Positions 1,841 to 25,655 of a stretch of DNA of 64,000 nucleotides are shown piece after piece. Below the pieces are notes generated by a model. The model made no database searches. It worked only from the letters and a program-made list of their open reading frames with translations, and was not told where the DNA came from. The stretch is from a virus (taxonomy: Duplodnaviria > Heunggongvirae > Uroviricota > Caudoviricetes): positions 1 through 64,000 of IMG/VR virus record IMGVR_UViG_3300042564_004805, one strand, 5' to 3'. Positions within the stretch are counted from its first letter, which is position 1. Each line of letters starts with the position of its first letter. The position numbers and the translations under genes were made by a program.

Positions 1841-3058
1841 TCATTCGTCTCCCACACTTTGCTGGCTCCACCGCGGCGCACGGAACAGTGAGCGTGCCTC
1901 GTCCACCCGGGTCTGCGTGCCAGTGCATTTGCGGATCACATCGCACACCAGCTCACGCCAGTCCACGTGGCCCTCACGGGCCCAGACCTTGAACACAGCA
2001 CTACGCAGGTTGGGCTCAAGACCCGGTGCTGCCTCCAGTGCAAACCGCTTTCTATCGTCACCAAACTGCCGCCGGAGCTTGACATACTGGTCCTTCCATA
2101 TGTAGGCAGTTTGCCCCACACCCGTCCAGAAGGCGTTCTCGTAGGCGTCGATGCGAGCCAGGTCCTCCACAGGCAGAAAGCTCTTGACGTCGTCCAGCTT
2201 TTCCGCCAGCATGAGGTCGATGAGGTTCTTCTCCTGCGTGAGAGCATCCTTGGCACGGTGGATACGCACATACCAGGCCGATTTCAACTTGGCCATATGT
2301 CCATCATCCCACCGGATGATCCACCCCTCCTCGCCTTCCAGCTCATGCGTCTCCCGAACGAGCTGCTCCATGCTAGCCACAGTACCAGGATAGGCCTTGA
2401 CTAGATCCAGCTCATACTCGGCCGCCAGTTCCTGCATCTGAGAGTAGGTGAGATACTCACCCGAGTTGATGTGACGCACAGCAGTCAGCACCAGTCGATC
2501 AACTGGATAATCACACACAATCTTTTGTTGACGAGTACACCACTCGAAACAGGCAGTGTATCCCTGCTCCAGTGTGTCTCGGATAAATCGGTCATAGTTG
2601 TCTCGAGTTGCCACGAACGGCTCAACCTGTGCTGCTACAGCAGTGGGCCCCATCTTGGTTGCAAGACAGTAGCCCTTACCTAGAGGTAGAGCACGAATCA
2701 TACTTCCATCCAACTTCTCAAGGATGATGTGTGGCTGAGTGAGATCGATGTTTTCAATCAAAGTCTCGCGCCGTTCGCCCACGTTCCAAAACTTCTGAAA
2801 TGCGCGGCTCACCAACTTTCCATCAAGGCTGAACAGCAGCCCCCTACACTCCCGGCGGATAGCCTTGAGTCGAGTCTGCCGCTCGCGCATGCTGGCGCTG
2901 CCTCCAGCAGTATGGACCTCGGGGAACATGTCCGGGCCCATCTGAATGTAGTTGACCACAGTGCCCCAGGGCCGCTGGGCTACAATGAAGCCTTCCACAC
3001 CCTGGACAGCTTCCAGCACTTGATCCAGGTGCGTGATCTCGGGAAACGTGTAGTGCAT
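1841..3058 (-). CDS. rnlA: RNA ligase 1 (T4 RnlA / gene 63-like)
   Basis: ECRGLLFSLDGK, KFWNVGE and the lysine motif I IILEKLDGSM line up with T4 Rnl1 ECRGIMFEMDGE..KFFNLNE..ILTKEDGSL. Confidence 0.85.
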   Translation of the reverse strand: MHYTFPEITHLDQVLEAVQGVEGFIVAQRPWGTVVNYIQMGPDMFPEVHTAGGSASMRERQTRLKAIRRECRGLLFSLDGKLVSRAFQKFWNVGERRETLIENIDLTQPHIILEKLDGSMIRALPLGKGYCLATKMGPTAVAAQVEPFVATRDNYDRFIRDTLEQGYTACFEWCTRQQKIVCDYPVDRLVLTAVRHINSGEYLTYSQMQELAAEYELDLVKAYPGTVASMEQLVRETHELEGEEGWIIRWDDGHMAKLKSAWYVRIHRAKDALTQEKNLIDLMLAEKLDDVKSFLPVEDLARIDAYENAFWTGVGQTAYIWKDQYVKLRRQFGDDRKRFALEAAPGLEPNLRSAVFKVWAREGHVDWRELVCDVIRKCTGTQTRVDEARSLFRAPRWSQQSVGDE

Positions 3059-3126
3059 GTTCAGCGCCTTTCCAGCTACTGTGGGCAGTATAGCACGATT
3101 TTCAGGGCTGTCAACCCGTTTTTTGG

Positions 3127-4029
3127 CTAGATGTGGCAGTCAACAATGGTGATCAGTGTGTCCTCGGGCAGTCCGTTGATCATCTCATTCATCCGAGCAT
3201 ACCACTCACTCTTGGGCATGTCGTCTGTGCTCATGCCCCACCAGCCCATGCTGCCGCGCTCCATCCACGCACCGTCCTTGACAAATGCAAAGGTCATGCC
3301 AGCACTGTCTCGAGCAGTTTGCACATACTCTTCACGGCCGACCAGCACCGAGTCCTCACACCAAAACAAGTCTTTGGCTTGGTGCAGGGCCTGCCTGCCC
3401 GTTTGGTTATGATAGAAATTTCGAGCACCGTCAGTGTCCCTGGGGAAGCGTGAAATCACACTGTCCCAGCTTTCCCAAACATTTGGAGCAAGTGCCCGCA
3501 CCCGATCCCAATAGACTCCGGCCTTCTCGCCTGCCTCGTCACGCATGCCTGCCCAGTCGATGTCTCCCATCCTCGCCTGGTCAGCATACCCTTGTTTTGC
3601 TCCTTGGGTTCCCAGTCCAGGGCGGCCTTGCACACCCTTTGCACCAGGCTTGAGCTTGAGCGTGCCAGTCCATCGCCCACCAACCTCGTACCAGTCCCAC
3701 TGCTTGTTGGGGTTGGTGCGCTTCACAGCCCGGACGAGCTCACCGTCCCGGACCACCACAAATCCAAACTTGTGCTCACCCTCTCGATCAACTTCGCTCT
3801 CATCTTCAACTACCTGGTCTTCAAAACCGTAATATTCCAGCGCATAGTCAAGGGCAGATTGGTCTTCCTCTGCATGTTCCTCCGCATCTTTCATATCGGC
3901 AAGGAACTTGTCAGTGACGTCCACATCCACCACATACTGGTCTGCCACACCAGTGCATTCAAACTCGTGGTAGGGAGCAAGCTGGGCTTCATGGTCAGGC
4001 CCAATAACCATAACGGTGAAGTGACTCAT
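3127..4029 (-). CDS. conserved hypothetical protein (WDWYEVGGRW motif)
   Basis: 300-aa ORF; AGAGGA Shine-Dalgarno site and a sigma70 promoter upstream; function not recognised. Confidence 0.55.
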   Translation of the reverse strand: MSHFTVMVIGPDHEAQLAPYHEFECTGVADQYVVDVDVTDKFLADMKDAEEHAEEDQSALDYALEYYGFEDQVVEDESEVDREGEHKFGFVVVRDGELVRAVKRTNPNKQWDWYEVGGRWTGTLKLKPGAKGVQGRPGLGTQGAKQGYADQARMGDIDWAGMRDEAGEKAGVYWDRVRALAPNVWESWDSVISRFPRDTDGARNFYHNQTGRQALHQAKDLFWCEDSVLVGREEYVQTARDSAGMTFAFVKDGAWMERGSMGWWGMSTDDMPKSEWYARMNEMINGLPEDTLITIVDCHI

Positions 4030-4056
4030 TGCTGTATCCTCTGTTGCGTTGCGTGA

Positions 4057-4084
4057 GTTATAGCAGGTTTTGCAAGGTTGTCAA
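4057..4084 (-). promoter_or_regulatory. sigma70-like early promoter (TTGACA-16-TATAAC) for 3127..4029
   Basis: minus-strand -35 TTGACA at 4079-4084 and -10 TATAAC at 4057-4062, just upstream of the ATG at 4029. Confidence 0.5.
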
Positions 4085-4128
4085 CTGGTTTGTTTTCGGA
4101 TGATTGATGTGCTGGCTGCAGGCACACT

Positions 4129-4422
4129 TTACCTACAAAAACGTTCCACAACGGCACGACCATAAACATCATATCCCACTAGCCTATCAGTGCAAATGGG
4201 CTCTGGTGCAGGAGCATAGATGTTTGGTGCAATGATAGCGCCCAACACTGCACCGCCAACAATGCCCCCTACAAGAGGGGCTACCCAGTTTCCGCCACCG
4301 TGGTTATGGTGATGGTGGCGGTAGTGAGGCGCAGGAGTATAGCCATAGGGGCGGTAGTGGTATCCTTGCGCCCAACAGGGACTGGAGGACAGCAACATGA
4401 ATGCAACAAGGAACCTTTTCAT
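4129..4422 (-). CDS. secreted or membrane glycine-zipper protein
   Basis: N-terminal signal-peptide-like MKRFLVAFMLLSSSPCWA, a His-rich stretch, and a GGIVGGAVLGAII glycine zipper. Confidence 0.5.
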   Translation of the reverse strand: MKRFLVAFMLLSSSPCWAQGYHYRPYGYTPAPHYRHHHHNHGGGNWVAPLVGGIVGGAVLGAIIAPNIYAPAPEPICTDRLVGYDVYGRAVVERFCR

Positions 4423-4430
4423 AACCTTAT

Positions 4431-5213
4431 TTAAGCGGCTGCTTGCAGTGTGTCAACACTCTGCTTGTTACGCATACGCTCGTAGATGCGCCAGGGCCGA
4501 CTGTCCACTTCAAAAGGGTTGCTGACCTTTTGTGAGAGGGCTTGCAGTGCCAGTTGACGGTCAACTTCGCGACGCATCCTCTTGGCTCGTTGGAAACCAG
4601 CCAGCTGCAATCCTGGCAGCATGTCTGAGTATTGGGCTTCCAGTGACTTGCACTGTTCGCGTCGCGTTTGAGTAGCAGTGGCTTGCACCTCGTGGTTGCG
4701 CACCAAATGAGTCAACTGCTTGATGCGCTTGTTCTGCTCAGCAGCCTCTCGGCGCATCTTACGTTCAAAAGCCAGTGAGCGAAAGCTGCCAGTCTCAGGC
4801 GCGGGCCGACTCATTTCCATAGCCTGCAGGAAATCTTCCCAGGGCGTGTTGCCTCGACGGTTGTTGCATCGGCCACACGCCACAGCCAAGTTGGTGATGT
4901 GGTCAGTGCCACCACAACTGCGAGGAGTGATGTGCTCAATGGTGGCACTGTTCTTGAAGCCTTGTTCGCCACGCATCTCGCAGTGACACCAGCAGCAGCG
5001 CCAACGCTGCACCTCAGCTAGCCGTGTGCGATCATACGCCTTGCGAGCCAGTGCTCGAGCCCGGCGAGCTTGATCCTGATTGGGATATACCTCCAGCCAA
5101 TAGGGCAAGGTTCTCATCTGGGGATCATTTACGATGCTGGGCACATCAATTCGCATATCCGTCTCCTTTGCAACACCCACAACATACAGAGTCTGCACAT
5201 CCGTGTCAACCAC
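4431..5213 (-). CDS. HNH endonuclease
   Basis: CCWCHC...EHITPRSCGGTDHITNLAVACGRCNNRRGN is an HNH motif with Cys/His zinc ligands. Confidence 0.8.
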   Translation of the reverse strand: MVDTDVQTLYVVGVAKETDMRIDVPSIVNDPQMRTLPYWLEVYPNQDQARRARALARKAYDRTRLAEVQRWRCCWCHCEMRGEQGFKNSATIEHITPRSCGGTDHITNLAVACGRCNNRRGNTPWEDFLQAMEMSRPAPETGSFRSLAFERKMRREAAEQNKRIKQLTHLVRNHEVQATATQTRREQCKSLEAQYSDMLPGLQLAGFQRAKRMRREVDRQLALQALSQKVSNPFEVDSRPWRIYERMRNKQSVDTLQAAA

Positions 5214-5514
5214 TATGTCCTGTGTTGTTTTGCCAAACCAGCTGAAAATGCGTCACCAGTTCCCTAGTGGGGAAAGCGATATACTGGTATCCAAAAAGCT
5301 GTGTATATGCCCAAACGCACTCACCTTGTGGTGGATCACCAATTCCAGTGTCACCAGGTCCTTGTTGGCGTAGCCAATCCAAGATTTCGTATTGTTGGCG
5401 GTAGTATTCCTCGCCAAGTGTAACAGAGCAGCAGAAAAGATCTTTGGGAAACAAAAGCAGCGCATTGTGGAAGACTCTGTCTTCTGTCACTTGGCTATCA
5501 CAGTGAAATTCCAT
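5206..5514 (-). CDS. hypothetical protein
   Basis: ORF only. Confidence 0.3.
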   Translation of the reverse strand: MEFHCDSQVTEDRVFHNALLLFPKDLFCCSVTLGEEYYRQQYEILDWLRQQGPGDTGIGDPPQGECVWAYTQLFGYQYIAFPTRELVTHFQLVWQNNTGHSG

Positions 5515-5828
5515 CCATGGTATTGGATTTCCATGTGTTCACTTTCCAACCAAACTAGGAACTCTTGCCATAACTTGTGGTCTCGATGGCACACAAAACG
5601 TGGAGGGTGTTCAGGATTTTGAGGGTCAGTCCAGTTATTTCCAGGAGTAAACATGAGCATGGGCCGATTTTCCAAAACACAACTGATGATCTGGCTTTTA
5701 AAGCGTTCCAGATCATAGTGCTGGTCATGCACACGTTCTCGCTCACGTTGCACTGCCAACAACGTGGTTCTCAACAGCTCTTGATCCAACAGCATTTGGC
5801 GTTGGTGTAGGTGTTGTCCCAATTTCAC
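5487..5828 (-). CDS. hypothetical protein
   Basis: ORF only. Confidence 0.35.
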   Translation of the reverse strand: MKLGQHLHQRQMLLDQELLRTTLLAVQRERERVHDQHYDLERFKSQIISCVLENRPMLMFTPGNNWTDPQNPEHPPRFVCHRDHKLWQEFLVWLESEHMEIQYHGWNFTVIAK

Positions 5829-6010
5829 CGACGCGCCCTGCGATACTCGCGTTCAGCCCATGTACTCAGCTTGTCAGCTTCATCAGCATAGCGTGCCCGG
5901 CTGATCTCCCCTCGCATATAACGCTCGTCCAGGCGATCTGTTGCACGTTCCACGGTACGCTCAATCTGATCTTCGGTCATGTGTGGATAGCTCACTTGGT
6001 TTATCAACAT
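5825..6010 (-). CDS. hypothetical small protein
   Basis: ORF directly downstream of a sigma70-like promoter. Confidence 0.4.
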   Translation of the reverse strand: MLINQVSYPHMTEDQIERTVERATDRLDERYMRGEISRARYADEADKLSTWAEREYRRARR

Positions 6011-6014
6011 CTGT

Positions 6015-6042
6015 AATTTAGCGGGTTTGACACTTTTGTCAA
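6015..6042 (-). promoter_or_regulatory. sigma70-like promoter (TTGACA-16-TAAATT) facing an inverted plus-strand TTGACA
   Basis: plus-strand tgtcaa at 6037-6042 and aattta at 6015-6020; a plus-strand ttgaca at 6027-6032 forms an inverted pair with it. Confidence 0.45.
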
Positions 6043-6044
6043 GG

Positions 6045-6072
6045 AGAAAGGTGAGCTTTCACCCACCTTTCT
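6045..6072. terminator. hairpin (9-bp stem AGAAAGGTG / CACCTTTCT, 10-nt loop) downstream of the SPFH gene
   Basis: perfect inverted repeat just past the stop of 6079..6999; T-rich only on the plus side. Confidence 0.35.
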
Positions 6073-6078
6073 GTTTGA

Positions 6079-6999
6079 TTACTTCACATGCACAAAGGGC
6101 AGTGCTGCACCTGGGACCATAGTGGTAGGGAGCTTACCGTCCCATCGCTCTGCAGCCGTAAGTGTGACTAGCTCTGCGTTCGCGCGAAGTGCATCGCCTC
6201 GGGCCCGGATGGCCTTGGCTTCAGCTTCGCCGCGCAGTTGGATAGCTTCAGCTTCAGCTCCAGCTCGTGCCTTGACTGCATCAGCTTCGGCCTGCGCTTT
6301 GGTTACAACAATTTCAGCCTGCACCTTCTCTCGGATCGCATCCTGTCGATCTCTTTCAACAGCCACCTCCGCGAGCATTCGCTGTTCGATGGATTTTTCG
6401 TAAGCGTCACTGAAATCAATGTTTTCAATAGCCAGATTCTCGATCACAAACGGCCCTTTGATGTTGGCCACAATGGCCGCCTTGACATCTGTGCCCAGTC
6501 GGGTGCGATCCTGAATCGCTGTGACTGCGTTGTAGCGACCCATTACGTTCTTGAGCTCGTCACGCACACCCGGCAGGATCACACGGTCTTGAACTCCTCG
6601 GAGCCCGCCAAACTCCTTGTAGACATCGTCCACATTGTCTTCGCTCACACGCCAGCTCACCGAGAAGGTGATAGTTGCAGGTTGCTGGTCTCGGCTGTAG
6701 ACCGCTTCCTTGTCCAGTCGCAGCAGGACGGTCTCGGTGCTCATGAGCACCACATTGTCGATGAAGGGGATTTTGAATCCCAGCCCTGGCTGCACCACGC
6801 TCACCAGCTTGCCGTTGCGGAGCAGCACACCGCGCTGACGCTCATCAACTGTGTACCAGCTGCCGAGGATCACTGTGAGTGCCAGCAGAGCAGCCATTGC
6901 GCCACCTACCATGGTAGCGATGAATCGAGCGTTCACTCGGGGAGTCTCCTGTAGAGGGTTGATTCGAGGATTGGAGTCACGCGGAGGTTGATTCCACAT
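6079..6999 (-). CDS. SPFH/band-7 (prohibitin/HflK-like) membrane protein
   Basis: N-terminal TM helix, SPFH core (VVQPGLGFKIPFIDNV...), and a C-terminal Ala/Glu-rich coiled coil. Confidence 0.85.
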   Translation of the reverse strand: MWNQPPRDSNPRINPLQETPRVNARFIATMVGGAMAALLALTVILGSWYTVDERQRGVLLRNGKLVSVVQPGLGFKIPFIDNVVLMSTETVLLRLDKEAVYSRDQQPATITFSVSWRVSEDNVDDVYKEFGGLRGVQDRVILPGVRDELKNVMGRYNAVTAIQDRTRLGTDVKAAIVANIKGPFVIENLAIENIDFSDAYEKSIEQRMLAEVAVERDRQDAIREKVQAEIVVTKAQAEADAVKARAGAEAEAIQLRGEAEAKAIRARGDALRANAELVTLTAAERWDGKLPTTMVPGAALPFVHVK

Positions 7000-7002
7000 A
7001 TC

Positions 7003-7132
7003 AGTTGGGGTCCTTGCGGTCGGGAGGGGTTCGGTTGCGATCGTAGAAACTTTCGATCAGTTTGCTGGCACCATAGGCACATACGCCAATGAGCACCAGA
7101 GCACCGATGAGTTCAATCAGCAATAGCACAGG
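7003..7132 (-). CDS. possible small TM protein (GTG start) upstream of the SPFH gene, NfeD-like partner?
   Basis: unlisted ~43-codon frame LLLIELIGALVLIGVCAYGASKLIESFYDRNRTPPDRKDPN with an AAAGGA Shine-Dalgarno site; coordinates approximate. Confidence 0.25.
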
Positions 7133-7147
7133 CAGTGTCCTTTGTTG

Positions 7148-7630
7148 TTAGGGATAGAGTTTGAGATGGCCTAGAATGTCTGAAACTTCGGGCTTGTTGC
7201 GATCCACAAGGCACCAAATGCAAGTGGTCTCTTGGCGAGTCATCAGCACACGCCCATCATCCATGGTTTTGATGACAGCTGCCTTGCCATTAGCTGCAAC
7301 AAGATCAGCTACCTCTTGATTTTCCACAAAAAATGGGTAGCTGGGGTCGACGACTGACCCCTTGACAGTGAGGTGGTATTCCCAACCATAAGTGCATCTC
7401 AGACCATGAAGCTGGTCCATTGTGGCACCCAGCACAATTGTGGTGTTGAAGTAGTAGGCACCTTGTGAGACACCGTCGGCAACATACTGTTGAACTAGTG
7501 GATGATCTGCAAATAGGCTCATCATCTGGGTTCCAGCATGATGTACTTGTGCAGCCAGCTTTCCTGGGTTCATACTGGGCAGATCAGTTCGGGCCAGCAC
7601 GTAGACAGCTAGATCAGGCGTGGCTTCCAT
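7148..7630 (-). CDS. peptidyl-tRNA hydrolase, PTH2 family
   Basis: DLPSMNPGKLAAQVHHAG and C-terminal GHLKLYP match the PTH2 signature (DLKMGKGKIAAQCSHA...GHLKLY); start trimmed to MEATPD, which has an AAGGAG site and a promoter upstream. Confidence 0.8.
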   Translation of the reverse strand: MEATPDLAVYVLARTDLPSMNPGKLAAQVHHAGTQMMSLFADHPLVQQYVADGVSQGAYYFNTTIVLGATMDQLHGLRCTYGWEYHLTVKGSVVDPSYPFFVENQEVADLVAANGKAAVIKTMDDGRVLMTRQETTCIWCLVDRNKPEVSDILGHLKLYP

Positions 7631-7654
7631 TTGTTGTTCTCCTTGTGTAGCTTC

Positions 7655-7682
7655 AATATACAGCACAGACAGACTGTGTCAA
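7655..7682 (-). promoter_or_regulatory. sigma70-like promoter (TTGACA-16-TATATT) for the PTH2 gene
   Basis: plus-strand tgtcaa at 7677-7682 and aatata at 7655-7660; AAGGAG Shine-Dalgarno before the ATG at 7630. Confidence 0.55.
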
Positions 7683-7972
7683 CCTTTTTATCTCCGTCCA
7701 TAGAGAGGGTGTTGGTACATTGTATCACACGCAACAGACTCACAGATGCCGTCAACTCCATGTGAGCAAACATTGCAGATAAGTTTCTTGGTTGGGAAAC
7801 TCCATGCAGGACTTCCAGCGTCATGCGCCCAGGTTCTTGGCGACCGTGGTCGCGGCAGGCTGGCTCATGGCGTGGCGGTCCTCGCTGCGGCGGCTGGGCG
7901 GATGAGGACATAAGTAGGTGAAAAATGCACTTCTGAGAACACGCACAGGCCGATGCGCCGGGATGCGGTAAC

Positions 7973-8965
7973 TCATCCGCCGTAGCCGCGCGGATGGGCT
8001 TCGCGCCAGGCCAGGGCGGTGGCGACGATGTCATCCAGTGCTGCGAGGCGCGGCTGCCAGCCGGTTTCGCGCATGATCCGCGCCGGGCTGGCAACAAGGC
8101 GGGCGGGGTCGCCAGGGCGGCGTGGGGCGAAGCGGTGCGGCACCGGGCGGCGGCTGACGCGCTCCACGCTCTGGATCACCTCCAGCACCGAATGCCCGGC
8201 GGCGGTGCCGAGGTTGTAGGTGACGCTGGCGTGGTCCAGCCGCTCCAGCGCCGCGAGGTGGGCGGCGGCGAGGTCGGTGACATGGATGTAGTCGCGGATG
8301 CAGGTGCCGTCCGGCGTGTCGTAATCGGTGCCAAACACGGCGAGTTCGGCGCGACGGCCGAGCATGGCGTCGATGGCCAACGGGATCAGATGGGTTTCCG
8401 GCGTGTGGTCCTCGCCCAGGCGGCCCTGCGGGTCGGCGCCGGCGGCGTTGAAGTAGCGCAGGCAGGCGGAGCGCATGCCGTGGATGCGTTCGGCCCAGCC
8501 CAGCGCGCGCTCCATCATCCATTTGCTTTCGCCGTAGGGTGAGCCGGGGTCGATCGCGGTTTCCTCGTCGATCGGCATGCGGTCTGGCGTGCCGAACAGG
8601 GCGGCGGTGGAGGAGAACACGAAGCGGGGCACGCCGTGCTTCACGCAGGCCTCCAACAGGCGCAGGCCGTTGCCGACATTGGCCGAGAGATAGCCGATCG
8701 GGTCGCGCATGGAATCGCCCACCAGCGACAGCGCGGCGAAGTGGAACACCGCATGCCACGGCCCCTGCGCCAGCACGGACGCGATCGCATCGGGGTCCTC
8801 CAGCGCGCCGGTGACCAGCGTGGCGCCGGGGAGCACGGCTTCGCGATGGCCGGTGCGCAGGTTGTCGAACACCACCACCTCCGCGCCTTGGTCCAGCAGG
8901 GCGGCGACGAGATGGCTGCCGACGAAGCCGGCACCTCCGGTAACGAGAAAGCGGCGTGACATGGC
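7973..8965 (-). CDS. galE: UDP-glucose 4-epimerase (GalE) inside a ~70% GC island
   Basis: VTGGAGFVGSH Rossmann motif, catalytic YGESK, full-length SDR epimerase; the MSRRF ATG is at 8963-8965; GC far above the flanks. Confidence 0.9.
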   Translation of the reverse strand, partial: AMSRRFLVTGGAGFVGSHLVAALLDQGAEVVVFDNLRTGHREAVLPGATLVTGALEDPDAIASVLAQGPWHAVFHFAALSLVGDSMRDPIGYLSANVGNGLRLLEACVKHGVPRFVFSSTAALFGTPDRMPIDEETAIDPGSPYGESKWMMERALGWAERIHGMRSACLRYFNAAGADPQGRLGEDHTPETHLIPLAIDAMLGRRAELAVFGTDYDTPDGTCIRDYIHVTDLAAAHLAALERLDHASVTYNLGTAAGHSVLEVIQSVERVSRRPVPHRFAPRRPGDPARLVASPARIMRETGWQPRLAALDDIVATALAWREAHPRGYGG

Positions 8966-8988
8966 GGCATCCTGAAATGGCCAGCCGG

Positions 8989-9267
8989 CTAGCCAGCGGG
9001 GTCGCGTCCGAGAATGACCGGCTCCTGGGTTGCGATCCAGTGCAGCAGCCCTGTGGGGTCGTATGGGTTGGGGAAGGCACGGCGCGGGCACGCCAGAGCA
9101 GGCAGCAGTTCGCATATGATTTGTTTTTGTTCGGGAGTGTCCTGTTGGTGCATGGCGCTGGCACCCAACTCCATGTACTGTTTAATCAAACCTTGCGCCA
9201 CAGGGTTGTCAGCTACCCGATAGCCCTTGAGTGTGCCCCATTTCAAGAGAATATAGTTTTCGGTCAT
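8989..9267 (-). CDS. hypothetical ORF chimeric across the GC junction
   Basis: N-terminal two thirds encoded in ~45% GC DNA, C-terminal ~35 aa in ~70% GC DNA contiguous with the galE island. Confidence 0.35.
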   Translation of the reverse strand: MTENYILLKWGTLKGYRVADNPVAQGLIKQYMELGASAMHQQDTPEQKQIICELLPALACPRRAFPNPYDPTGLLHWIATQEPVILGRDPAG

Positions 9268-9280
9268 CGTGGCCCCGACT

Positions 9281-9362
9281 CAGTTGAACTCTGTTGTTTC
9301 ACCGTTCTTCACCCGTCGGAGAAGATATGACGGAGAGAGGAACTTGCAGATTTTCCTGCTAT
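9281..9362 (-). pseudogene. duplicated 3' fragment of the RNA ligase gene (RKICKFLSPSYLLRRVKNGETTEFN*)
   Basis: ~80-bp direct repeat of 9783-9860, which encodes the last 26 codons plus stop of 9784..10995, with synonymous and conservative changes. Confidence 0.5.
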
Positions 9363-9373
9363 GCAGTCGATAC

Positions 9374-9646
9374 TCACTTGGCCCGCGTGGTAGCTTTCGT
9401 GTGAGCCCGCACTTGCTTGGTGTACGCGCTCAGGTCACGGATGAAGCAATGCCAGGGGTCAACATCAGCCATCCACATCTGATACACATCCAGGTTTTGT
9501 TCCAGCCAACCAGGCATTTTGACCAGCGCGCGGAGCACAGTATCAGCACGATCACGACTGAGATTGCTAGTGTCTAGACCCAACGCGGCAGCAGCCACAT
9601 ACGCGCGGCCAACGTTAGCAAACATAGGCTTGGGGAGATCGCTCAT
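9374..9646 (-). CDS. hypothetical protein
   Basis: 90-aa ORF with a strong promoter upstream. Confidence 0.5.
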   Translation of the reverse strand: MSDLPKPMFANVGRAYVAAAALGLDTSNLSRDRADTVLRALVKMPGWLEQNLDVYQMWMADVDPWHCFIRDLSAYTKQVRAHTKATTRAK

Positions 9647-9673
9647 TTGTTAGTCCTTTATGTATTATACGTC

Positions 9674-9701
9674 ATATTAGCACAGTTCCGGACATTGTCA
9701 A
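9674..9701 (-). promoter_or_regulatory. sigma70-like promoter (TTGACA-16-TAATAT)
   Basis: plus-strand tgtcaa at 9696-9701 and atatta at 9674-9679, upstream of the ATG at 9646. Confidence 0.55.
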
Positions 9702-9783
9702 CCAGAAAGTTTCTGTTTCTGGGATCAATATGTCTAGGGACTTGGGCATAGGCAGCAGTAGACCTCCAGTAGATCGTAGCGCA

Positions 9784-10995
9784 TCAGTTGAACTCCGTTG
9801 CCTCGCCGTTCTTCACTCGGCGGAGCAGATACGCCGGAGAGATGAATTTGCAGATTTTCCTACCGTGCAGGGGATGCTCGGTGGGAACCAGGCTGCGCAC
9901 CACCACACCTTCCCGCACATTGGTGCCACCCACCGTTGTGACACCGTCTCTCACAGCCTCAATGGCAGTTTGGTCAAAGGGGCCAGTGTAGAGGGTAGGT
10001 ACACAGGGCAGGTCCTTTGCCCAGTAGGCCACGGCATCGGGACTTAGCCACTCCCGCCCGATCCGCATGTCGAACACCCGGAACGTGGGCTTAGTGGTGC
10101 CGTAGTCGAGGTCCTGCACGCCCTTGCCGAAAACTTCTCCCAGGATAGCCACCGGATGAGCACCGCCGTCCACCTTGCTCATCCTGTGGAGGAGCCCGGC
10201 GAGGTCATGGTCGGCTAGCAGTGTGCCAAGTGCCCGCACATAGAGGTTGTTGGCGTTGGCTTCGTTGTTCTTGAACACCAAACCCTGACCGCCTAGTCCC
10301 TTGCTGCTGACAGTGATGCTGCGGTAGCCTGCATGGTCGGGGAACATCTCGGGATGGTCCATGCCTGGGAAGTACTGGATGATGGTACAAGATCCATGAA
10401 TTTTTTCTTGGGCCACCACCACCTCACCAGGTTCGAAGATGTCAGGCACGCTCTCCCAACGCTGAAAATCGTAGGTAAGAGCAGCCTCAGCAACACTGGC
10501 AACTTCACCAGACATCGCAGCGGGAATGGGCGGCTCCCACCTGGTGATGCCCAAGATTGCAGCAGCATCCTCGCCTAGCTTGACTGGATATTCAAGACTG
10601 TCTTTGCCTACTACATGTACATCCGTCGCCGACCCAAAATCAGCAGAAAGGCAATCGTCATCACCATATGCAATGAGCCCATACAGCACACCTTCGCTGA
10701 AAATACCACGCAGCTTGAGTGGCTTCACACGGTTGCCATCACTGCCTGCCAGCACACCCTTACCAGCGTCTTCGTTCCAAAATCCCATGTCCTTGAGCAG
10801 CCATTCAGGCAGCACCGAGGCTGAGGGAATGTATACGACCCAGTCACCGGGCTTGTAGCGCGGGCTACCATCCTCTAGTTTGTTTGCGATGCAGAGATAA
10901 CCGAGGCCTTCAAGGCGCACAAGAGAAAGGCGATCCGCATTCGGATGTTCTTCGACTGCGGCCACACGCACCACAGGGCAACTGAACTTGCTCAT
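9784..10995 (-). CDS. RNA ligase (Rnl2/Rnl5-like nucleotidyltransferase) with N-terminal OB-fold tRNA-binding (Myf/EMAP-like) domain
   Basis: N-terminus VVRVAAVEEHPNADRLSLVRLEGLG...KLRGIFSEG is tRNA_bind-like; motif I EKIHGSC; EGVVVRS; C-terminal RKICKF lysine motif V. Confidence 0.75.
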   Translation of the reverse strand: MSKFSCPVVRVAAVEEHPNADRLSLVRLEGLGYLCIANKLEDGSPRYKPGDWVVYIPSASVLPEWLLKDMGFWNEDAGKGVLAGSDGNRVKPLKLRGIFSEGVLYGLIAYGDDDCLSADFGSATDVHVVGKDSLEYPVKLGEDAAAILGITRWEPPIPAAMSGEVASVAEAALTYDFQRWESVPDIFEPGEVVVAQEKIHGSCTIIQYFPGMDHPEMFPDHAGYRSITVSSKGLGGQGLVFKNNEANANNLYVRALGTLLADHDLAGLLHRMSKVDGGAHPVAILGEVFGKGVQDLDYGTTKPTFRVFDMRIGREWLSPDAVAYWAKDLPCVPTLYTGPFDQTAIEAVRDGVTTVGGTNVREGVVVRSLVPTEHPLHGRKICKFISPAYLLRRVKNGEATEFN

Positions 10996-11026
10996 CTCGT
11001 CCTCACAAAAACTGTCTTATCAACGC

Positions 11027-11055
11027 ACATTAGACTAGGTGTAGCTATGTGTCAA
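11027..11055 (-). promoter_or_regulatory. sigma70-like promoter (TTGACA-17-TAATGT) for the RNA ligase gene
   Basis: plus-strand tgtcaa at 11050-11055 and acatta at 11027-11032. Confidence 0.5.
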
Positions 11056-11064
11056 CCAAAAACT

Positions 11065-11361
11065 TTATGCCATTTCCTCAACCACCCACTCATCCACCAC
11101 CACAGCCCTCACACAGTAATGTGTTCCAGGAGCCATGTCTGTCACAGAATTGAACAAGTGAGTGTAGTATCTTTGGCCAATTTGCTTGATGGTAGGCAGT
11201 TTGAGATAGGTCTTACCAGTTTTGCTGAGATTGCTCTTTACTGCAATCGTGCCGCTGCCATAATAGCTGGGTAGGTCTGCGAGCTTGACTCGCACTTCCC
11301 TGCTGGGGCAAAAATACATGCTAGTAGGCACATGCAGGATCCGATAAACAGCAGCCATCAA
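11065..11361 (-). CDS. hypothetical protein
   Basis: ORF only. Confidence 0.4.
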   Translation of the reverse strand: MMAAVYRILHVPTSMYFCPSREVRVKLADLPSYYGSGTIAVKSNLSKTGKTYLKLPTIKQIGQRYYTHLFNSVTDMAPGTHYCVRAVVVDEWVVEEMA

Positions 11362-11945
11362 ACCAGGCCCATTTCCTGTCGGATGAAGCGGAGCAGGCCA
11401 GCCATGCTGTCCACATTGCCGTTAGCACCAATCACTGCCCGCAGTGCCCGGCTCCGAACGTCTCGAGAGATGTTCATCTGCAGGCTTGTGTTGATCCAGT
11501 CAATCTTCTCGTTCACCTTGGCCATTGTCATCCGGTTGGGGTTGAACTTGGCGTTCCAGTTGCTGCCCATGCCATCACTGCTGGGATCGCGCTTGCTGTT
11601 CACATTGCGCACACCAACGTTTGTAAGACCCTCCTGGATCAGCTGATCCGCCACCTGTTCCTTGTGTTCAGCAGCACGGATCATGTTGGGAAACTCGCCC
11701 TCCACGTCCTGTGTTTCCCAACCCTCATATTGGGTGTTGACAAAAGCCAGCATCAGCCCACCAGTGAGAACGCGATCGTTCTTGTAGTTGCCTACCAAGC
11801 CCTGTTCATATGCATAACGGCTCTTGCCTGCAATACCCTGCCAAGTGGTGTTAGCAGCCTTGCTGTCAACATTGTGAATGCTCACATGAAACAACCGCTT
11901 GGCGGCGTGCTTGTGAACAACGATCTTCTGAGGCTTGTTGGTCAT
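11358..11945 (-). CDS. hypothetical protein (faint amidase_2-like SIHNVD motif)
   Basis: 195-aa ORF with a promoter at 11970-11997; weak resemblance only. Confidence 0.5.
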   Translation of the reverse strand: MTNKPQKIVVHKHAAKRLFHVSIHNVDSKAANTTWQGIAGKSRYAYEQGLVGNYKNDRVLTGGLMLAFVNTQYEGWETQDVEGEFPNMIRAAEHKEQVADQLIQEGLTNVGVRNVNSKRDPSSDGMGSNWNAKFNPNRMTMAKVNEKIDWINTSLQMNISRDVRSRALRAVIGANGNVDSMAGLLRFIRQEMGLV

Positions 11946-11969
11946 GTCATGTACTCCATTTACCAGCGC

Positions 11970-11997
11970 AACATAGCAGGATATTGAGTGTTGTCAA
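11970..11997 (-). promoter_or_regulatory. sigma70-like promoter (TTGACA-16-TATGTT)
   Basis: plus-strand tgtcaa at 11992-11997 and aacata at 11970-11975. Confidence 0.45.
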
Positions 11998-12009
11998 CCA
12001 AAGATGTGC

Positions 12010-12381
12010 CTAAAAGGGCGTAATTGTGCTGGCAAAAGCCTCCACAACGTCCTTGGCCTCTTTCAGGCCCAGAGCCGTTTCAGTTCGCAGCTCTTTGATG
12101 GCATTGATCTTCATGCCAGCACGAACATAGTCTTCCACAGACTTGCTGATGGTGACCCCATACATGGTGGGACGTTCAGTATTTGTGAGGCGTCGCATAG
12201 CTTCCCGACTGGTTTCGTCCAGGATCAAGATGTCGCGTGCATCTCGTGACAGTGCGTAGATGTCGTGTGCCCGAGCTTGCCCTTCTCGAGCACCTTCGTG
12301 GCTTAGGTGGATGATCTCGTTCACCAGGTGCACTAGGCGCTTGAAGTCATTGTCAGAAAGGTTTCCGAGATCATCGGTCAT
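12010..12381 (-). CDS. protein with ribosomal L7/L12 C-terminal domain-like segment
   Basis: C-terminus [26 protein letters not shown] resembles the L7/L12 CTD ([24 protein letters not shown]). Confidence 0.6.
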   Translation of the reverse strand: [123 protein letters not shown]

Positions 12382-12392
12382 AACCGGTTTTC

Positions 12393-12629
12393 CTATTTCT
12401 CAAACACGTGAAGACGAGTGCTGCCAAACGAGGTCTTTACCTTGCGCACACGGTAGCCATGCCGCGCAAGGATCATGCTGGCCTCGCTGTAGAGGCGTTC
12501 ATCCCACCCCCATACCTTGATGCTGCGACCATTTTGAATGCGGTCGCTGAACAGGATTCGAGGTGTACCCAGCAGGGTGATGAGGCTGCGCACAAGACGG
12601 GCGGGAGTGGGTTTGGGTTTGTTGTTCAT
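12393..12629 (-). CDS. hypothetical small protein (start at MNNKPKP)
   Basis: a promoter sits immediately upstream of the internal ATG at 12627-12629. Confidence 0.4.
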   Translation of the reverse strand: MNNKPKPTPARLVRSLITLLGTPRILFSDRIQNGRSIKVWGWDERLYSEASMILARHGYRVRKVKTSFGSTRLHVFEK

Positions 12630-12635
12630 GTGCCT

Positions 12636-12664
12636 AAAGTAGCAGGGGGTTACGGGGTTGTCAA
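12636..12664 (-). promoter_or_regulatory. sigma70-like promoter (TTGACA-17-TACTTT)
   Basis: plus-strand tgtcaa at 12659-12664. Confidence 0.35.
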
Positions 12665-16407: not shown

Positions 16408-16704
16408 TCAATTTGTGGAGCGTTCAGTATTTTTGATGAGTTGAGACATGTCTATTCCATTAACAGACAGCAGACTATCAAACCTCAGACTGCGCCAATT
16501 TCCCTTATCTAGATCCCAGAGGACCACTAGATTCAAGTTTTGCCCCTTTGACTTTCTATTGGTTGATACTTGCGTCGTGGATACTTGCGGCACAAGTTGT
16601 TCAGATAATGTGGCCTTCATTTTTCGGTGAGAGCCATCTCGTTTCTCAAACACTAGGTTGACTTCACCAGACAACAGTTTTTCAACAAATTGATCTCGTG
16701 TCAT
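16408..16704 (-). CDS. hypothetical protein
   Basis: ORF only. Confidence 0.4.
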   Translation of the reverse strand: MTRDQFVEKLLSGEVNLVFEKRDGSHRKMKATLSEQLVPQVSTTQVSTNRKSKGQNLNLVVLWDLDKGNWRSLRFDSLLSVNGIDMSQLIKNTERSTN

Positions 16705-17141
16705 TAAATTTCCTTCTCTACTTTTTTCAATACTTTTTGCATATCTGGATTGACTAAGTTTGCAGCTTCTTGCCAGGTGACTACTTTAAATTGATCCAAT
16801 TCTTTGACATCACGACCTTTGGAGTCTTTAAACGTGCTCTTGCAGACTAGGGAAGTGGGGTCTGGCATTTGTTCGACCTTCCAAAGATACAGCACTAGAT
16901 CCTTTTTTGGCTTATATAGGAACACGCCCAGAGGCGTAAGGGCTGAGGTGTCTTCCACTACCAAACCAGTTTCTTCATTTAGTTCCCTCAGTGCAGCTTC
17001 AAGAAAGCTTTCTCCAGGGTTCATGCCTCCTTTAGGTAGGTCCCACCATTTACCACGTGTTACATGCCCAACAACCAACTTGTTCCCGTCAGTTATCACC
17101 ACACCACAACTTGTTGATTTACCCATTGTAAGATTCTCCAT
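16704..17141 (-). CDS. Nudix hydrolase
   Basis: Nudix box GGMNPGESFLEAALRELNEETGL; start uncertain (listed ORF begins at TTG; tandem -35 elements at 17172-17207). Confidence 0.75.
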   Translation of the reverse strand: MENLTMGKSTSCGVVITDGNKLVVGHVTRGKWWDLPKGGMNPGESFLEAALRELNEETGLVVEDTSALTPLGVFLYKPKKDLVLYLWKVEQMPDPTSLVCKSTFKDSKGRDVKELDQFKVVTWQEAANLVNPDMQKVLKKVEKEI

Positions 17142-19101: not shown

Positions 19102-19332
19102 TCAACACCATGTGAGCTTGAACAAGAGCATGTCTTCTTCCCTCTCAAACCAAATGTTACCAGCTCGTGTCCAATAATACCGTTCCCCAGGTGCTGCGTC
19201 AAGCCAACTAAACATCTTGTCTCCGTTAACGGCGGAGAAATTCACTTGGCAGAGATGCCATTGGTCCAGCATGCTGTAGTCACGTCTCTGGTTGTGACCT
19301 TTGGCGAGATAGTCGTTGTCGATATCGTGCAC
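19102..19332 (-). CDS. small W/C-rich protein, family 1 (...WFEREEDMLLFKLTWC)
   Basis: first of four tandem paralogs with a conserved C-terminus. Confidence 0.6.
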   Translation of the reverse strand: MHDIDNDYLAKGHNQRRDYSMLDQWHLCQVNFSAVNGDKMFSWLDAAPGERYYWTRAGNIWFEREEDMLLFKLTWC

Positions 19333-19335
19333 GGG

Positions 19336-19557
19336 CTATGACCACGTGAGCGTGAACAAGATCATGTCTTCTTCTCTCTCAAACCATACTCGAGTTCCGC
19401 CCTCCCAAAAGCGGCCACCATCTGTTGTTTTGAGCCACTGGAGGATGGTATGTCGATCAGGCCCAACAAATTGGCGAATAGAACAGCTATGCCATTCCTG
19501 GATTTTAGTGTGGTTAGTGTGGTAGTCGCTGGGGTATTGTTGATCAATATCGATCAT
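19336..19557 (-). CDS. small W/C-rich protein, family 1 (...WFEREEDMILFTLTWS)
   Basis: tandem paralog. Confidence 0.6.
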   Translation of the reverse strand: MIDIDQQYPSDYHTNHTKIQEWHSCSIRQFVGPDRHTILQWLKTTDGGRFWEGGTRVWFEREEDMILFTLTWS

Positions 19558-19573
19558 TTATTCTTCCTACCAA

Positions 19574-19783
19574 TCAACACCATGTGAGCTGGAACAGGAT
19601 CATGTCTTCTTCTCGTTCAAAATAAATGGAGATGACACCAACCCAATAGCGTCCGCCATCTGTAGTGTTGAGCCAGTTGTAAACGGATTTTTGATCAGGC
19701 AACGGACTGCTCAGTCGACAACTGTGCCAGCCTTTGAGGATATCAAACCCAAGGTTGATTAGTTCTCTTTCAACGTCTGTCAT
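19574..19783 (-). CDS. small W/C-rich protein, family 1 (...YFEREEDMILFQLTWC)
   Basis: tandem paralog; shares W.NTTDGGRYW with its neighbour. Confidence 0.6.
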   Translation of the reverse strand: MTDVERELINLGFDILKGWHSCRLSSPLPDQKSVYNWLNTTDGGRYWVGVISIYFEREEDMILFQLTWC

Positions 19784-19789
19784 GTTGCC

Positions 19790-20047
19790 CTAGCACCAAG
19801 TGAGAGAGAACAGCACCATGTCATCTTCATGCCGGAACCAAATCCACATCTCCTGCTCTCCAGCAGTGCTTGTTTCAATCTGACATGCCCACAATGCGTC
19901 TTTGTGGAGTCTACTTGGTGAGCCCCAACGCTGTTTAGTCCAGCTGCAAATTTCCGTGTAGTGCGAAAAATTACTCACGTTGACGACTCGCACAAAGTAG
20001 GGAAATTGCCGGCGGTTCACCGCAGTATCTGGAGTGAGCTTCCTCAC
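19790..20047 (-). CDS. small W/C-rich protein, family 1 (...WFRHEDDMVLFSLTWC)
   Basis: tandem paralog. Confidence 0.6.
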   Translation of the reverse strand: MRKLTPDTAVNRRQFPYFVRVVNVSNFSHYTEICSWTKQRWGSPSRLHKDALWACQIETSTAGEQEMWIWFRHEDDMVLFSLTWC

Positions 20048-21198: not shown

Positions 21199-22086
21199 TT
21201 ATCGATATCTATCCAGCACAGTTTGCAGCTCATTTACCAGTTGATCAACACCAGTTTCTCGCTTGACACCGGTGGTGAGAGGGCCATAGTGCATTGACAA
21301 ACAGTCAAGAAGTAGATGTTTGATCCTCTTCTCATCTGGCTTATCTCGCAACGTGCTGTTGGCATGTAGTGTCTCTAGAGATTTTTCCTTGACATCAAAC
21401 CAACTGTCCAGCTGCTCTAGTGTCCACTCACCTCGCCGAATGCTCTTGAGCACCTCGCTGTTGCGCTCAATGTCAAGGTCATGCTCTACCAGGATCTGCT
21501 CGCATTGCAGCATGAGCCTCACTACATGCACTCCAAACTTCAGATCCCATCCGTGTTCAGCAATAGTGGCAGCTCTTTTGGGATTGCTGCTGTTGGTTTT
21601 GTTGCGAATTTTTGAAATTTGTGAAAATGCGTATCCCCGAAGTTTTCCCATAGCTCCTTTGTGGAGGAACTCTTTCCTATGCTCTCTCACATGCTCTGCG
21701 ATTTTGGTGCTGTGGAGAATGCAGCGGCGGGGAAGAAAGAGAACGTCCAAAACATTTGGATTATTTTCCATCGCCAGTTGCATAAAATCAACGATATTAT
21801 AAATAGAAAAGTCCAACTCTTTCCGTTGATCCGGCAGCTGAATGTGATGCTCGCTCCACACTCGAAACCGCTGTTCCTGTGTGCCAAAGCCATACACCCT
21901 GCCGCCGTCGGTGAAGGGGAACACAATCTCACGGGGCGGGATGCAGAAGCCAAAGCAGTCCATGTCACTCGTGTCGTTGCTGACACCATAGGCAGCACTA
22001 CCAGCATAGCCCAGAAATTGAGTGTTGTCGGGCAACCACTTGGGCGGGTGTATGAGTTTTCGGTCAACTAATGTGTGCAGCAGCAT
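21199..22086 (-). CDS. predicted nucleotidyltransferase (Pol-beta-like fold)
   Basis: GYAGSAAYGVSNDTSDMDCFGF matches the GS...D.D nucleotidyltransferase signature. Confidence 0.5.
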   Translation of the reverse strand: MLLHTLVDRKLIHPPKWLPDNTQFLGYAGSAAYGVSNDTSDMDCFGFCIPPREIVFPFTDGGRVYGFGTQEQRFRVWSEHHIQLPDQRKELDFSIYNIVDFMQLAMENNPNVLDVLFLPRRCILHSTKIAEHVREHRKEFLHKGAMGKLRGYAFSQISKIRNKTNSSNPKRAATIAEHGWDLKFGVHVVRLMLQCEQILVEHDLDIERNSEVLKSIRRGEWTLEQLDSWFDVKEKSLETLHANSTLRDKPDEKRIKHLLLDCLSMHYGPLTTGVKRETGVDQLVNELQTVLDRYR

Positions 22087-24834: not shown

Positions 24835-25096
24835 ACAGAGGTCTCACATTATAGACCAGCAACAAATCAAGGGTTTCAAAAGGTATCTTGTAGCCTATAT
24901 CCCACTCATAATGCGGCACATTCAACTCTAGCCAACACCAAAGTTCAGGAAAATAGTGTTGTAGCCACCCTTTGCGACCACCATACTGGTGGAAAATGTT
25001 CTCCAAATGATGGTTGAGGAAATTGTCGGCTAATGGGTAGCGCCAGTGCCCACCAGCATCAATGCACTGCCATCGGTCAAGCTTTCTCATCATCAC
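24794..25096 (-). CDS. small protein, family 2 (YFPELWCWLELN)
   Basis: tandem paralog. Confidence 0.45.
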   Translation of the reverse strand: MMMRKLDRWQCIDAGGHWRYPLADNFLNHHLENIFHQYGGRKGWLQHYFPELWCWLELNVPHYEWDIGYKIPFETLDLLLVYNVRPLFEAAWEDQILDTV

Positions 25097-25655
25097 TTCC
25101 CATCAAATCCTTCAGCATGAGTTTGAAGGTCTCAGCCTGCTCGAGCGAATCTGCAAGAGCGTTGTGAGTGTGCGGCAACTTGCTAAACCAATGTCGTGGC
25201 CAATTCCTTTTCACACTCTCACGGTAAGGCAGCCGCAGCATGCACATGGCCATGGTCTTCATGTCTAACACACTGAAACTGAACACACTTTTCCCTGTGA
25301 AACGCATGAGATAGTAATACACCCAAGTGAAGTCAAATCCACTGGGCATGCACACTGCCACTGGACTACCAGGAAAACTTGCCACCCACTGACTGAAATG
25401 GGGCATAGCCTCCTCTGGGCTTTGACACCACACTCGCGTCTCATCATAATATTTTTGATGTTGTGCCCAGAAATCCATTGTTTTGGGGTCTGGTTTGGCC
25501 TCAGGCAACAGATTCAAGTTCACATAGTAGGTGTCAAGATTGTTGCCCTGTTCATCAAAAGCCACACAACCCAAGCTCAACATACTATTGAGTCCTGGAC
25601 AGGGTCCATCGGTTTCGATGTCTATGGAAAAATAAGCTGTTGTTTTCTTGCTCAT
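25077..25655 (-). CDS. DEDDh 3'-5' exonuclease (DnaQ-like)
   Basis: Exo I FSIDIETDG, Exo III H..NALADS. Confidence 0.75.
   Translation of the reverse strand: MSKKTTAYFSIDIETDGPCPGLNSMLSLGCVAFDEQGNNLDTYYVNLNLLPEAKPDPKTMDFWAQHQKYYDETRVWCQSPEEAMPHFSQWVASFPGSPVAVCMPSGFDFTWVYYYLMRFTGKSVFSFSVLDMKTMAMCMLRLPYRESVKRNWPRHWFSKLPHTHNALADSLEQAETFKLMLKDLMGSDDEKA

Follow-up and report, generated by a model that had tools for sequence, protein, structure and literature searches.

Jumbo phages commonly combine RNA ligases of the Rnl1, Rnl2 or RtcB types with the nucleotidyltransferase RlaP, kinase/phosphatase end-healing enzymes and PTH2-type peptidyl-tRNA hydrolases, and the same logic as that considered here, repair of cleaved tRNAs and rescue of jammed ribosomes, has been proposed for them (PMC7824862, Iyer, Anantharaman, Krishnan, Burroughs, Aravind 2021). 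We analyzed a 64,000-nucleotide stretch of a tailed phage (IMG/VR record IMGVR_UViG_3300042564_004805, positions 1 to 64,000; hereafter the window), focusing on an early region, positions 1841-12381, in which every gene lies on the minus strand. Four of its genes, each an intact minus-strand open reading frame (ORF) at the position reported in a preliminary description made from the sequence alone, encode an Rnl1-type RNA ligase (1841-3058), a PTH2-fold hydrolase (7148-7630), an Rnl5-family RNA ligase (9784-10995) and a 123-residue protein that resembles part of ribosomal protein bL12 (12010-12381). That description had proposed that these genes form a broad and uncharacterised programme of tRNA and ribosome rescue or translation takeover.

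Like the complement described for jumbo phages (PMC7824862), the genome studied here carries several ATP-dependent RNA ligases, RlaP, a kinase/phosphoesterase and an archaeo-eukaryotic-type PTH2. It differs in that one of the ligases is Rnl5 rather than Rnl2 or RtcB, in that the healing enzyme pairs a kinase with a calcineurin-type phosphoesterase whereas PNK-HAD is the more usual form there, and in that it belongs to an uncultured phage for which 50,697 phage records contain no close relative at the DNA level. The Caulobacter phages CcrColossus and CcrPW and the Brevundimonas vB_BpoS phages, jumbo phages of alphaproteobacterial hosts, likewise encode full-length Rnl5 homologs (36-39% identity) as well as PTH2 homologs together with Rnl5 and/or Rnl1 homologs, and in CcrColossus RlaP lies near Rnl5. 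In contrast to the window, these phages have other neighbouring genes and no detected member of the L12-like family, and they are siphovirus-type Dolichocephalovirinae, whereas relatives of the contig studied here carry T4-type genes. A third point of reference is the Rnl1/Pnkp pathway with which T4 counters the PrrC anticodon nuclease. Both genomes pair an Rnl1-type ligase bearing the C-terminal domain with a separate healing kinase/phosphatase encoded elsewhere; in T4 the Rnl1 and Pnkp genes are not adjacent. The two Rnl1 enzymes share only ~30% identity, and the healing enzyme here resembles Clostridium thermocellum Pnkp (kinase plus metallophosphoesterase), while that of T4 is a kinase joined to a HAD-type phosphatase. 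Thus, jumbo phages are already on record with an RNA-repair gene set of this kind, most of which also occurs in cultured jumbo phages of alphaproteobacteria. With the window, a catalogued pattern gains a further uncultured jumbo phage, whose hosts are probably Acetobacterales, and the phage's combination of Rnl5, Rnl1, RlaP, a C. thermocellum Pnkp-like healing enzyme and PTH2 in one genome helps to choose enzymes for characterisation and changes no concept.

We consider it likely, at a probability of roughly 70%, that a loose set of independently acquired accessory early genes keeps translation running when tRNAs are damaged by host or rival nucleases. The Pnkp-type kinase/metallophosphoesterase would produce 3'-OH and 5'-phosphate termini from 2',3'-cyclic-phosphate and 5'-OH ones, and RlaP would next put back the one or two nucleotides missing at the 3' end. 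Rnl1 would then seal breaks in tRNA loops, Rnl5 would seal nicks in duplex RNA with an RNA 3'-OH strand, and the PTH2-fold hydrolase would strip peptidyl (or N-acylated aminoacyl) groups off tRNAs from stalled ribosomes for reuse. The order of these steps, their substrates and a defence-countering purpose are inferred from the published biochemistry of the families. The RNA- and tRNA-repair theme of the preliminary description is strengthened by the finding of RlaP, a 3'-5' exoribonuclease-like protein and the Pnkp-type enzyme, and Pfam reproduced all of its domain calls (RNA_lig_T4_1, RNA_ligase plus OB, PTH2 and Ribosomal_L12). The features that it had held to be unexplained have ordinary precedents, however, since Rnl5 enzymes normally carry an OB domain, jumbo phages often encode PTH2 (PMC7824862) and phage proteins with bL12 domains have been published (PMC6375957).

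The evidence observed directly comprises family membership, folds, catalytic motifs, promoter-like sites, a healing enzyme on the same contig and the absence of a conserved gene order. With respect to gene order, we compared 36 early-region proteins with seven related loci, covering the genes within 10 kb of homologs of the L12-like protein, PTH2 or Rnl5. Apart from the focal gene itself, none of the 36 recurred near a homolog in any of the seven loci. Homologs of the L12-like protein (42-45% identity) lie near rIIB, a DnaE fragment, ClpP, heme oxygenase and a sigma factor. In one phage the PTH2 homolog neighbours genes for a class I lysyl-tRNA synthetase and a small AAA_33 kinase; in another it lies between gp13 and the tail sheath gene. 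The Rnl5 homologs of Caulobacter and Brevundimonas phages have no further neighbour in common with the window. A conserved operon was rejected because the seven loci share no neighbours. Since relatives keep each gene without the genes that surround it here, the repair genes are best read as loose, individually mobile accessory early genes that lie close together in this genome, and not as an operon-like system.

No polynucleotide kinase/phosphatase had been recognised in the region, and its absence had been regarded as unusual. The negative stands for the window: among 12 unassigned window proteins of at least 171 residues, motif scanning found no Walker A motif, no HAD DxDxT motif and no more than a single HxT/S motif per protein (2H enzymes need a pair), and we therefore found no hidden kinase or phosphatase there. 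It does not extend to the genome. A gene for a 410-residue kinase plus metallophosphoesterase (locus L016, 19315-20384) shares the contig and the strand, and is located in the 10-kb flank of window position 1, ~8.7 kb beyond that position and 10.5 kb downstream of Rnl1. The partner thus seemed to be missing only because of where the window ends. Pfam assigned the product an AAA_33 kinase domain (2e-13) followed by a calcineurin-type Metallophos domain (2.6e-12). Its best matches in the Protein Data Bank (PDB) were the kinase domain (4mde and 4gp6, 1.5e-7) and the phosphatase domain (4j6o, 1e-4) of C. thermocellum Pnkp, with weaker matches to lambda phosphatase and T4 Pnk. Against the 851-position NCBIfam profile TIGR04075 (bacter_Pnkp) it reached 7e-26 and 90.6 bits, relative to a cutoff of 750. 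These similarities predict a two-domain enzyme for end healing only.

The nucleotidyltransferase noted earlier at 21199 is real and belongs to RlaP, the RNA-ligase-associated Pol-beta nucleotidyltransferase family (21199-22086, minus strand, 295 residues; Pfam PF10127, 1.3e-16, 61.5 bits versus a cutoff of 23). It also matched the nucleotidyltransferase family phrog_388 (6.9e-46), and bears the Pol-beta motif as GSAAYG at residue 29 and DMD at residue 41. Damaged RNA 3' ends receive 1-2 NMPs from RlaP, which over-damaged tRNA needs if its aminoacylation is to be restored (PMC12776372). In CcrColossus, RlaP (gp172, 3.4e-66) is encoded 1.3 kb from the Rnl5 homolog gp167. Similarity between the window RlaP and gp172 was near noise in BLASTP; Pfam assigns both to RlaP.

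The 403-residue ligase encoded at 9784-10995 (minus strand) had been described as a KxHG ligase fused to an added tRNA-binding domain. Both the ligase and the OB domain were recovered by Pfam (RNA_ligase, 1e-18, plus PHA02142 OB), whereas the notion of an addition did not hold. The protein scored 169.5 bits against NCBIfam TIGR02306 (RNA_lig_DRB0094), above the equivalog cutoff of 151.15, with residues 10-392 matching profile positions 7-341 of 341, and its PDB match was Naegleria NgrRnl (5cot, 2.7e-4). Nucleotidyltransferase motifs are present as KIHG (K198), LGEVFG (285), EGVVV (362) and KICKF (380), and the protein ends 19 residues past motif V with no C-terminal appendage. The Rnl5 (DraRnl/NgrRnl) family is defined by just this architecture, namely a characteristic module at the N-terminus that is needed for adenylylation and nick sealing, a C-terminal nucleotidyltransferase and no C-terminal appendage, and a 2015 study already pointed to DraRnl homologs in phages of Caulobacter and Sinorhizobium (PMC4408790). 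Because the N-terminal OB module defines the family, it calls for no separate explanation here. Rnl5 enzymes seal 3'-OH/5'-PO4 nicks in duplexes in which RNA is the 3'-OH strand (PMC7261155, PMC5397189), and the window protein is a full-length Rnl5 ligase with a predicted nick-sealing activity.

A 96-nucleotide direct repeat (82% identity) involves the same gene. One copy (9784-9879, minus strand) forms the last 31 codons of Rnl5; the other (9280-9375, minus strand) is an orphan 31-codon remnant of a diverged Rnl5 C-terminus (EYRLHSRKICKFLSPSYLLRRVKNGETTEFN*) located 408 nucleotides downstream of the intact gene. Between the two copies lies a gene for a 90-residue protein with its own consensus promoter site. 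The repeat pair looks like a recombination scar, left by cassette insertion or allele replacement.

The 123-residue protein (12010-12381, minus strand) has a C-terminal helix pair (residues 91-114) that a linker joins to a new helical N-domain, and is the only feature of the region without an adequate explanation. It had been described as ending in a segment like L7/L12's C-terminal domain (CTD). A Pfam match to Ribosomal_L12 bears this out in part (2.1e-7, 31.6 bits versus a gathering cutoff of 25.9), but covers profile positions 11-41 of 67 only, and the protein lacks a complete bL12 CTD of three helices and three strands, retaining ~30 of ~70 CTD residues. Matches to bL12 in the PDB (0.004-0.04) were confined to residues 89-118, with residues 91-114 aligning to helices 4-5 of bL12 from several species. 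Outside residues 87-120 we found no Pfam, NCBIfam or PDB similarity, and the N-terminal dimerisation/uL10-binding domain and hinge of bL12 are absent. An AlphaFold2 model (pLDDT 80) was almost wholly helical, with two 2-residue bridges only and a lower-confidence linker ahead of the final three helices; it lacked the bL12 CTD sheet and had no specific fold match. A profile of the 86-residue N-domain, searched against 1.84 billion representatives, recovered ~40 genuine clusters, all of 66-136 residues, and nearly all full-length members (~120-136 residues) end in the bL12-like motif. N-domain and C-terminal motif thus travel together in a small, phage-restricted family, the only one that the profile recovers. 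Within an alignment of the family (22-85% overall identity), I92, A94, I95, K96, R99, L106, K107, A109 and K110 are invariant. By these alignments the protein fails membership of bL12, and it keeps the factor-binding residues of helices 4-5.

Mizuno et al. (2019, PMC6375957) have described bL12 domains in phage proteins, and suggested that such viral domains offer interfaces for translation factors. Similarities to the present family include the bL12 CTD sequence with its conserved EF-G/EF-Tu contact residues, and a domain embedded in a non-ribosomal protein in varied genomic contexts. In contrast to those proteins, which carry most of the bL12 domain, members here have helices 4-5 only, always at the C-terminus of a dedicated family of ~125 residues, and the cultured examples of Mizuno et al. 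all have genomes of <80 kb whereas the genome here is that of a jumbo phage.

With odds a little short of even, the helix pair is a generic structural or dimerisation hairpin whose role lies apart from translation factors. The restriction of the match to ~30 residues and the lack of a CTD sheet or specific fold hit in the model are consistent with this reading, as is the occurrence of similar C-terminal motifs in unrelated small proteins, namely gp3 of Streptomyces phage EGole and the small protein P0025, which has a two-copy variant of the motif. However, the positions invariant in the family, whose members are otherwise 22-45% identical, coincide with the helix 4-5 residues of bL12 conserved from Escherichia coli to Thermus, and EF-Tu, EF-G, IF2 and RF3 bind to the surface formed by these helices, according to Helgstrand 2007 and Kothe 2004 (cited in PMC3299993 and PMC3505967). 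We tentatively raise the possibility, doubtful at present, that the family is a minimal ribosomal-stalk mimic that presents the GTPase-binding helix pair and captures or redirects EF-Tu, EF-G, IF2 or RF3 early in infection; it could throttle host translation by serving as a decoy, or work as an adaptor between a factor and a phage-specific partner. If these proteins do bind translational GTPases, phages would be using a compact, portable factor-binding module, and the suggestion of Mizuno et al. would become testable. Under either reading the protein is not demonstrably part of the repair pathway, and we regard its gene as a separate early one. EGole gp3 (locus L099, 2453-2893; 146 residues, annotated as hypothetical) is encoded in the terminal-repeat early region of that phage and carries the bL12 helix 4-5 motif (KKIQCIKQLREKTGLGLKDSKDIVDAY) near its C-terminus. 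The motif thus recurs, as judged by similarity, among small early proteins of unrelated phages.

The PTH2-fold protein (7148-7630, minus strand; 160 residues from the ATG at 7630) was identified by Pfam with a match to residues 21-64 only (1.8e-6, 28.6 bits versus a gathering cutoff of 23). A search of the PDB with the single sequence returned nothing; the family profile and fold search alone succeeded. An AlphaFold2 model built from a 48-member family alignment had a pLDDT of 93, and the top 12 Foldseek matches in the PDB were all Pth2 or Bit1 (probability 1.0, target-normalised TM-score 0.62-0.75). The family profile matched Sulfolobus solfataricus Pth2 (1xty, 1.2e-3), with the family GK (G23, K24) aligned to the second GK of the GKGK motif of 1xty (K18 by count). 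We take the catalytic residues of S. solfataricus Pth2 to be the lysine K18 in the N-terminal GK..AAQ..HA motif and the aspartate D86 after strand 3. G23, K24, D95 and P96-F100 are invariant across the 48 homologs, and D95 lies directly past the equivalent of strand 3. Sequence alignments stopped short of that region, both between the family profile and 1xty and in hhalign against human PTRH2, which aligned through the N-terminal motif only. Relative to archaeal Pth2, whose canonical length is ~115-120 residues, the modelled protein has an insertion of ~40 residues (around residues 100-130) that forms an extended hairpin and a helix. Although the Pfam match spans the N-terminal third only, the fold search confirms the assignment, and the model indicates a true Pth2 fold with a ~40-residue insertion.

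The earlier identification of a PTH2 enzyme was therefore sound, whereas its supposed rarity in phages was not. A family search yielded 165 relatives, of which many are encoded on 100-485 kb contigs, annotated homologs occur in cultured Brevundimonas, Caulobacter, Erythrobacter and Rhizobium phages, and PTH2 of jumbo phages has already been described and read as releasing peptidyl-tRNA in ribosome rescue following tRNA cleavage (PMC7824862). We regard it as unlikely that the enzyme mainly counters GNAT toxins of the TacT/AtaT type by deacylating N-acetyl-aminoacyl-tRNA, with clean-up after tRNA cleavage as a secondary role. Such an activity would be in keeping with a Pth2 core that is conserved in the phage family together with a conserved insertion that could alter substrate range, and with PTH2 neighbours that are variable and often unrelated to ligases. 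Recycling of tRNAs from stalled ribosomes, the role assigned to it within the repair set, is the reading that follows jumbo-phage precedent. In a 408-kb relative (locus L014, 11227-11697), the PTH2 homolog lies ~0.7 kb from a gene for a 156-residue AAA_33 kinase, near the class I lysyl-tRNA synthetase gene and an IS605-type element.

We consider it improbable that the four genes, including that of the L12-like protein, constitute one coordinated, uncharacterised programme of translation takeover or ribosome rescue, as had been proposed. The genes do lie within 10.5 kb on one strand behind promoter-like sites of the same type, and by homology all of them touch RNA or translation. However, homologs of the L12-like protein, PTH2 and Rnl5 sit among wholly different neighbours in relatives that keep single genes, and here the repair genes are interspersed with an unrelated HNH endonuclease, an SPFH protein and a host-derived epimerase of ~70% GC. 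The same promoter motif also heads unrelated genes over 47 kb, and every component has an ordinary family-level explanation. A loose set of separately acquired repair genes would account for these observations.

The 405-residue product of 1841-3058 (minus strand) had been called a ligase like T4 RnlA, an assignment upheld by Pfam matches to RNA_lig_T4_1 (6.7e-26) and to T4_Rnl1_C (1.3e-7, 32.3 bits versus a cutoff of 27), the latter covering the all-helical Rnl1-specific C-domain (residues 270-359). Alignment to T4 Rnl1 (2c5u, 3.8e-26) placed motifs I, IV and V in register, with KLDG (K115) opposite KEDG, EGWI (244) opposite EGYV, and KLKS (257) opposite KIKS. Its nearest cultured relatives, at 35-39% identity, are encoded by Synechococcus, Ruegeria and Caulobacter phages. 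That the protein serves chiefly to catalyse tail-fibre attachment (T4 gp63's second activity) and not in RNA repair is highly improbable, since this annotation, carried by its best PHROG match (phrog_562, 'RNA ligase and tail fiber protein attachment catalyst', 3e-65) and by its cultured-phage relatives, is inherited from T4, whereas all nucleotidyltransferase motifs and the Rnl1 C-domain are kept and the gene lies in an early-type region behind a sigma-70-like site with structural genes far off.

Several observations weigh against a function in tRNA repair as outlined here. The Rnl1 homolog scored 133.7 bits against NCBIfam TIGR02308, and because this is well below the equivalog cutoff of 242.25 we class it as a divergent member of the Rnl1 family and not as an equivalog. 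The PTH2-like protein scored 19.9 bits against NF003314 relative to a cutoff of 126. The substrate of each could differ from that of the corresponding model enzyme. The Pnkp-like protein, for which 356 of the 410 residues were read, lacks the C-terminal ligase domain of bacterial Pnkp, and the physiological role of Rnl5 is uncharted even in Deinococcus (PMC5397189). Finally, the window has no tRNA genes; tRNA and Rfam scans over its whole length gave no hits at all.

The preliminary description had placed the focal genes under sigma70-type early promoters, and this was largely right. The sequence TTGACA-N16-TANNNT occurs at 10 sites, all on the minus strand, compared to an expectation of 0.83 +/- 0.90. 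The sites, which are consensus matches to the host sigma-70 type and not measured promoters, span 3087-47549, with nine of them within 3-26 kb, and the -10 element is usually preceded by TGC, giving mostly ...TGCTAnnnT. This repeated motif is early-promoter-like, and would make use of the host sigma-70 consensus. Rnl1 and PTH2 have sites directly upstream, at 3087-3114 (TTGACA-N16-TATACT, with TG before the -10 element) and 7655-7682 (TTGACA-N16-TATATT), respectively. A consensus site at 11970-11997 heads a string of genes for a 195-residue protein, a 97-residue protein and Rnl5, such that Rnl5 is the third gene behind it, and no further consensus site was found between this site and the Rnl5 start. 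Direct reading of the sequence at 12393-12664 revealed a gene for a 78-residue protein (12393-12629) behind a promoter-like site at 12636-12664 (TTGACA-N17-TACTTT). The L12-like gene is the second gene behind this site and begins 11 nucleotides past the stop of the 78-residue gene, which is also called on variant contigs and has no family match. The -10 element of the 12636-12664 site ends 6 nucleotides ahead of the ATG of the 78-residue gene, and its transcript may be leaderless. All of these sites and genes are on the minus strand.

Exact-protein matches placed the window, in reversed orientation, at ~75,161-139,160 of a 326,193-bp metagenome contig (ENA ERZ27272062, k141_697863), and matches of the same type located its proteins on contigs of dozens of samples. 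The 10.5-kb region had no Megablast match among the 50,697 phage records, indicating that there is no close cultured relative at the DNA level. Contigs with homologs of the focal genes bear T4-type rIIB, gp13, gp15, sheath and spanin genes, and the window is thus part of an uncultured jumbo phage of ~326 kb. A GalE-type NAD epimerase gene (7973-8982, minus strand) forms a sharp GC island, with ~70% GC compared to ~50% in its flanks. Over exactly the length of the gene it is 82% identical in DNA (84% in protein) to a gene of an Acetobacterales metagenome-assembled genome (MAG; CAXNGD010000104.1), and its next-best matches are from Acidisphaera, Acidisoma and Elioraea (63-68%). It looks like a recently captured host gene. 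Since the gene combines the GC island with this level of identity, the host lineage is probably an Acetobacterales alphaproteobacterium.

Further genes of note on the minus strand lie outside positions 1841-12381. The Nudix hydrolase noted earlier at 16704 proved real (16704-17126, 140 residues in the database gene calls; Pfam NUDIX 2.3e-15), and shows a weak NCBIfam resemblance to RppH-type RNA pyrophosphohydrolases, all scores falling far under cutoff. Its stop overlaps, at 16704, the start of a gene for a WYL_2 (Sm-like SH3 barrel) protein (16408-16704, 8.5e-15), which suggests a translationally coupled pair. A 192-residue protein with an Rv2179c-like 3'-5' exoribonuclease domain (25077-25655; Pfam PF16473, 1.9e-8) has a site located by the consensus scan at 25662-25689. 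At 59117-60459, a gene for a calcineurin-type phosphoesterase (262 residues) adjoins one for a weakly matching CYTH-domain protein (184 residues), just downstream of the DNA polymerase B fragment.

Elsewhere the window encodes a fibre protein of 2378 residues that bears a Peptidase_S74 chaperone domain. Glycosyltransferases and methyltransferases are numerous, and there are also a carbamoyltransferase, GTP cyclohydrolase I, a FEN-type nuclease, a weak match to gp23 and, as the last gene of the window, a partial family B DNA polymerase. GTP cyclohydrolase I and a weak radical-SAM-like protein are encoded at 48432-54481 (minus strand) among methyltransferases and many glycosyltransferases, and by its gene content this could be a block for nucleotide or surface modification. 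Genes for a DUF2201 metallopeptidase/VWA protein (27251-28513) and a MoxR-like AAA ATPase (42160-43374), both on the minus strand, lie 14 kb apart. Two arrays of four diverged repeats each (701-1505 and 19102-19844; cores of 55-66 nucleotides, spacing ~216-260 nucleotides) coincide with runs of small tandem ORFs of ~55-100 residues, which are apparently paralogous small early genes. Between the HNH gene and Rnl1 lies a 300-residue gene (3127-4029, minus strand; phrog_10079, function not assigned), in place of which a variant contig (locus L003, 10123-10419) has a 98-residue gene with gene order otherwise the same, a strain-level accessory swap.

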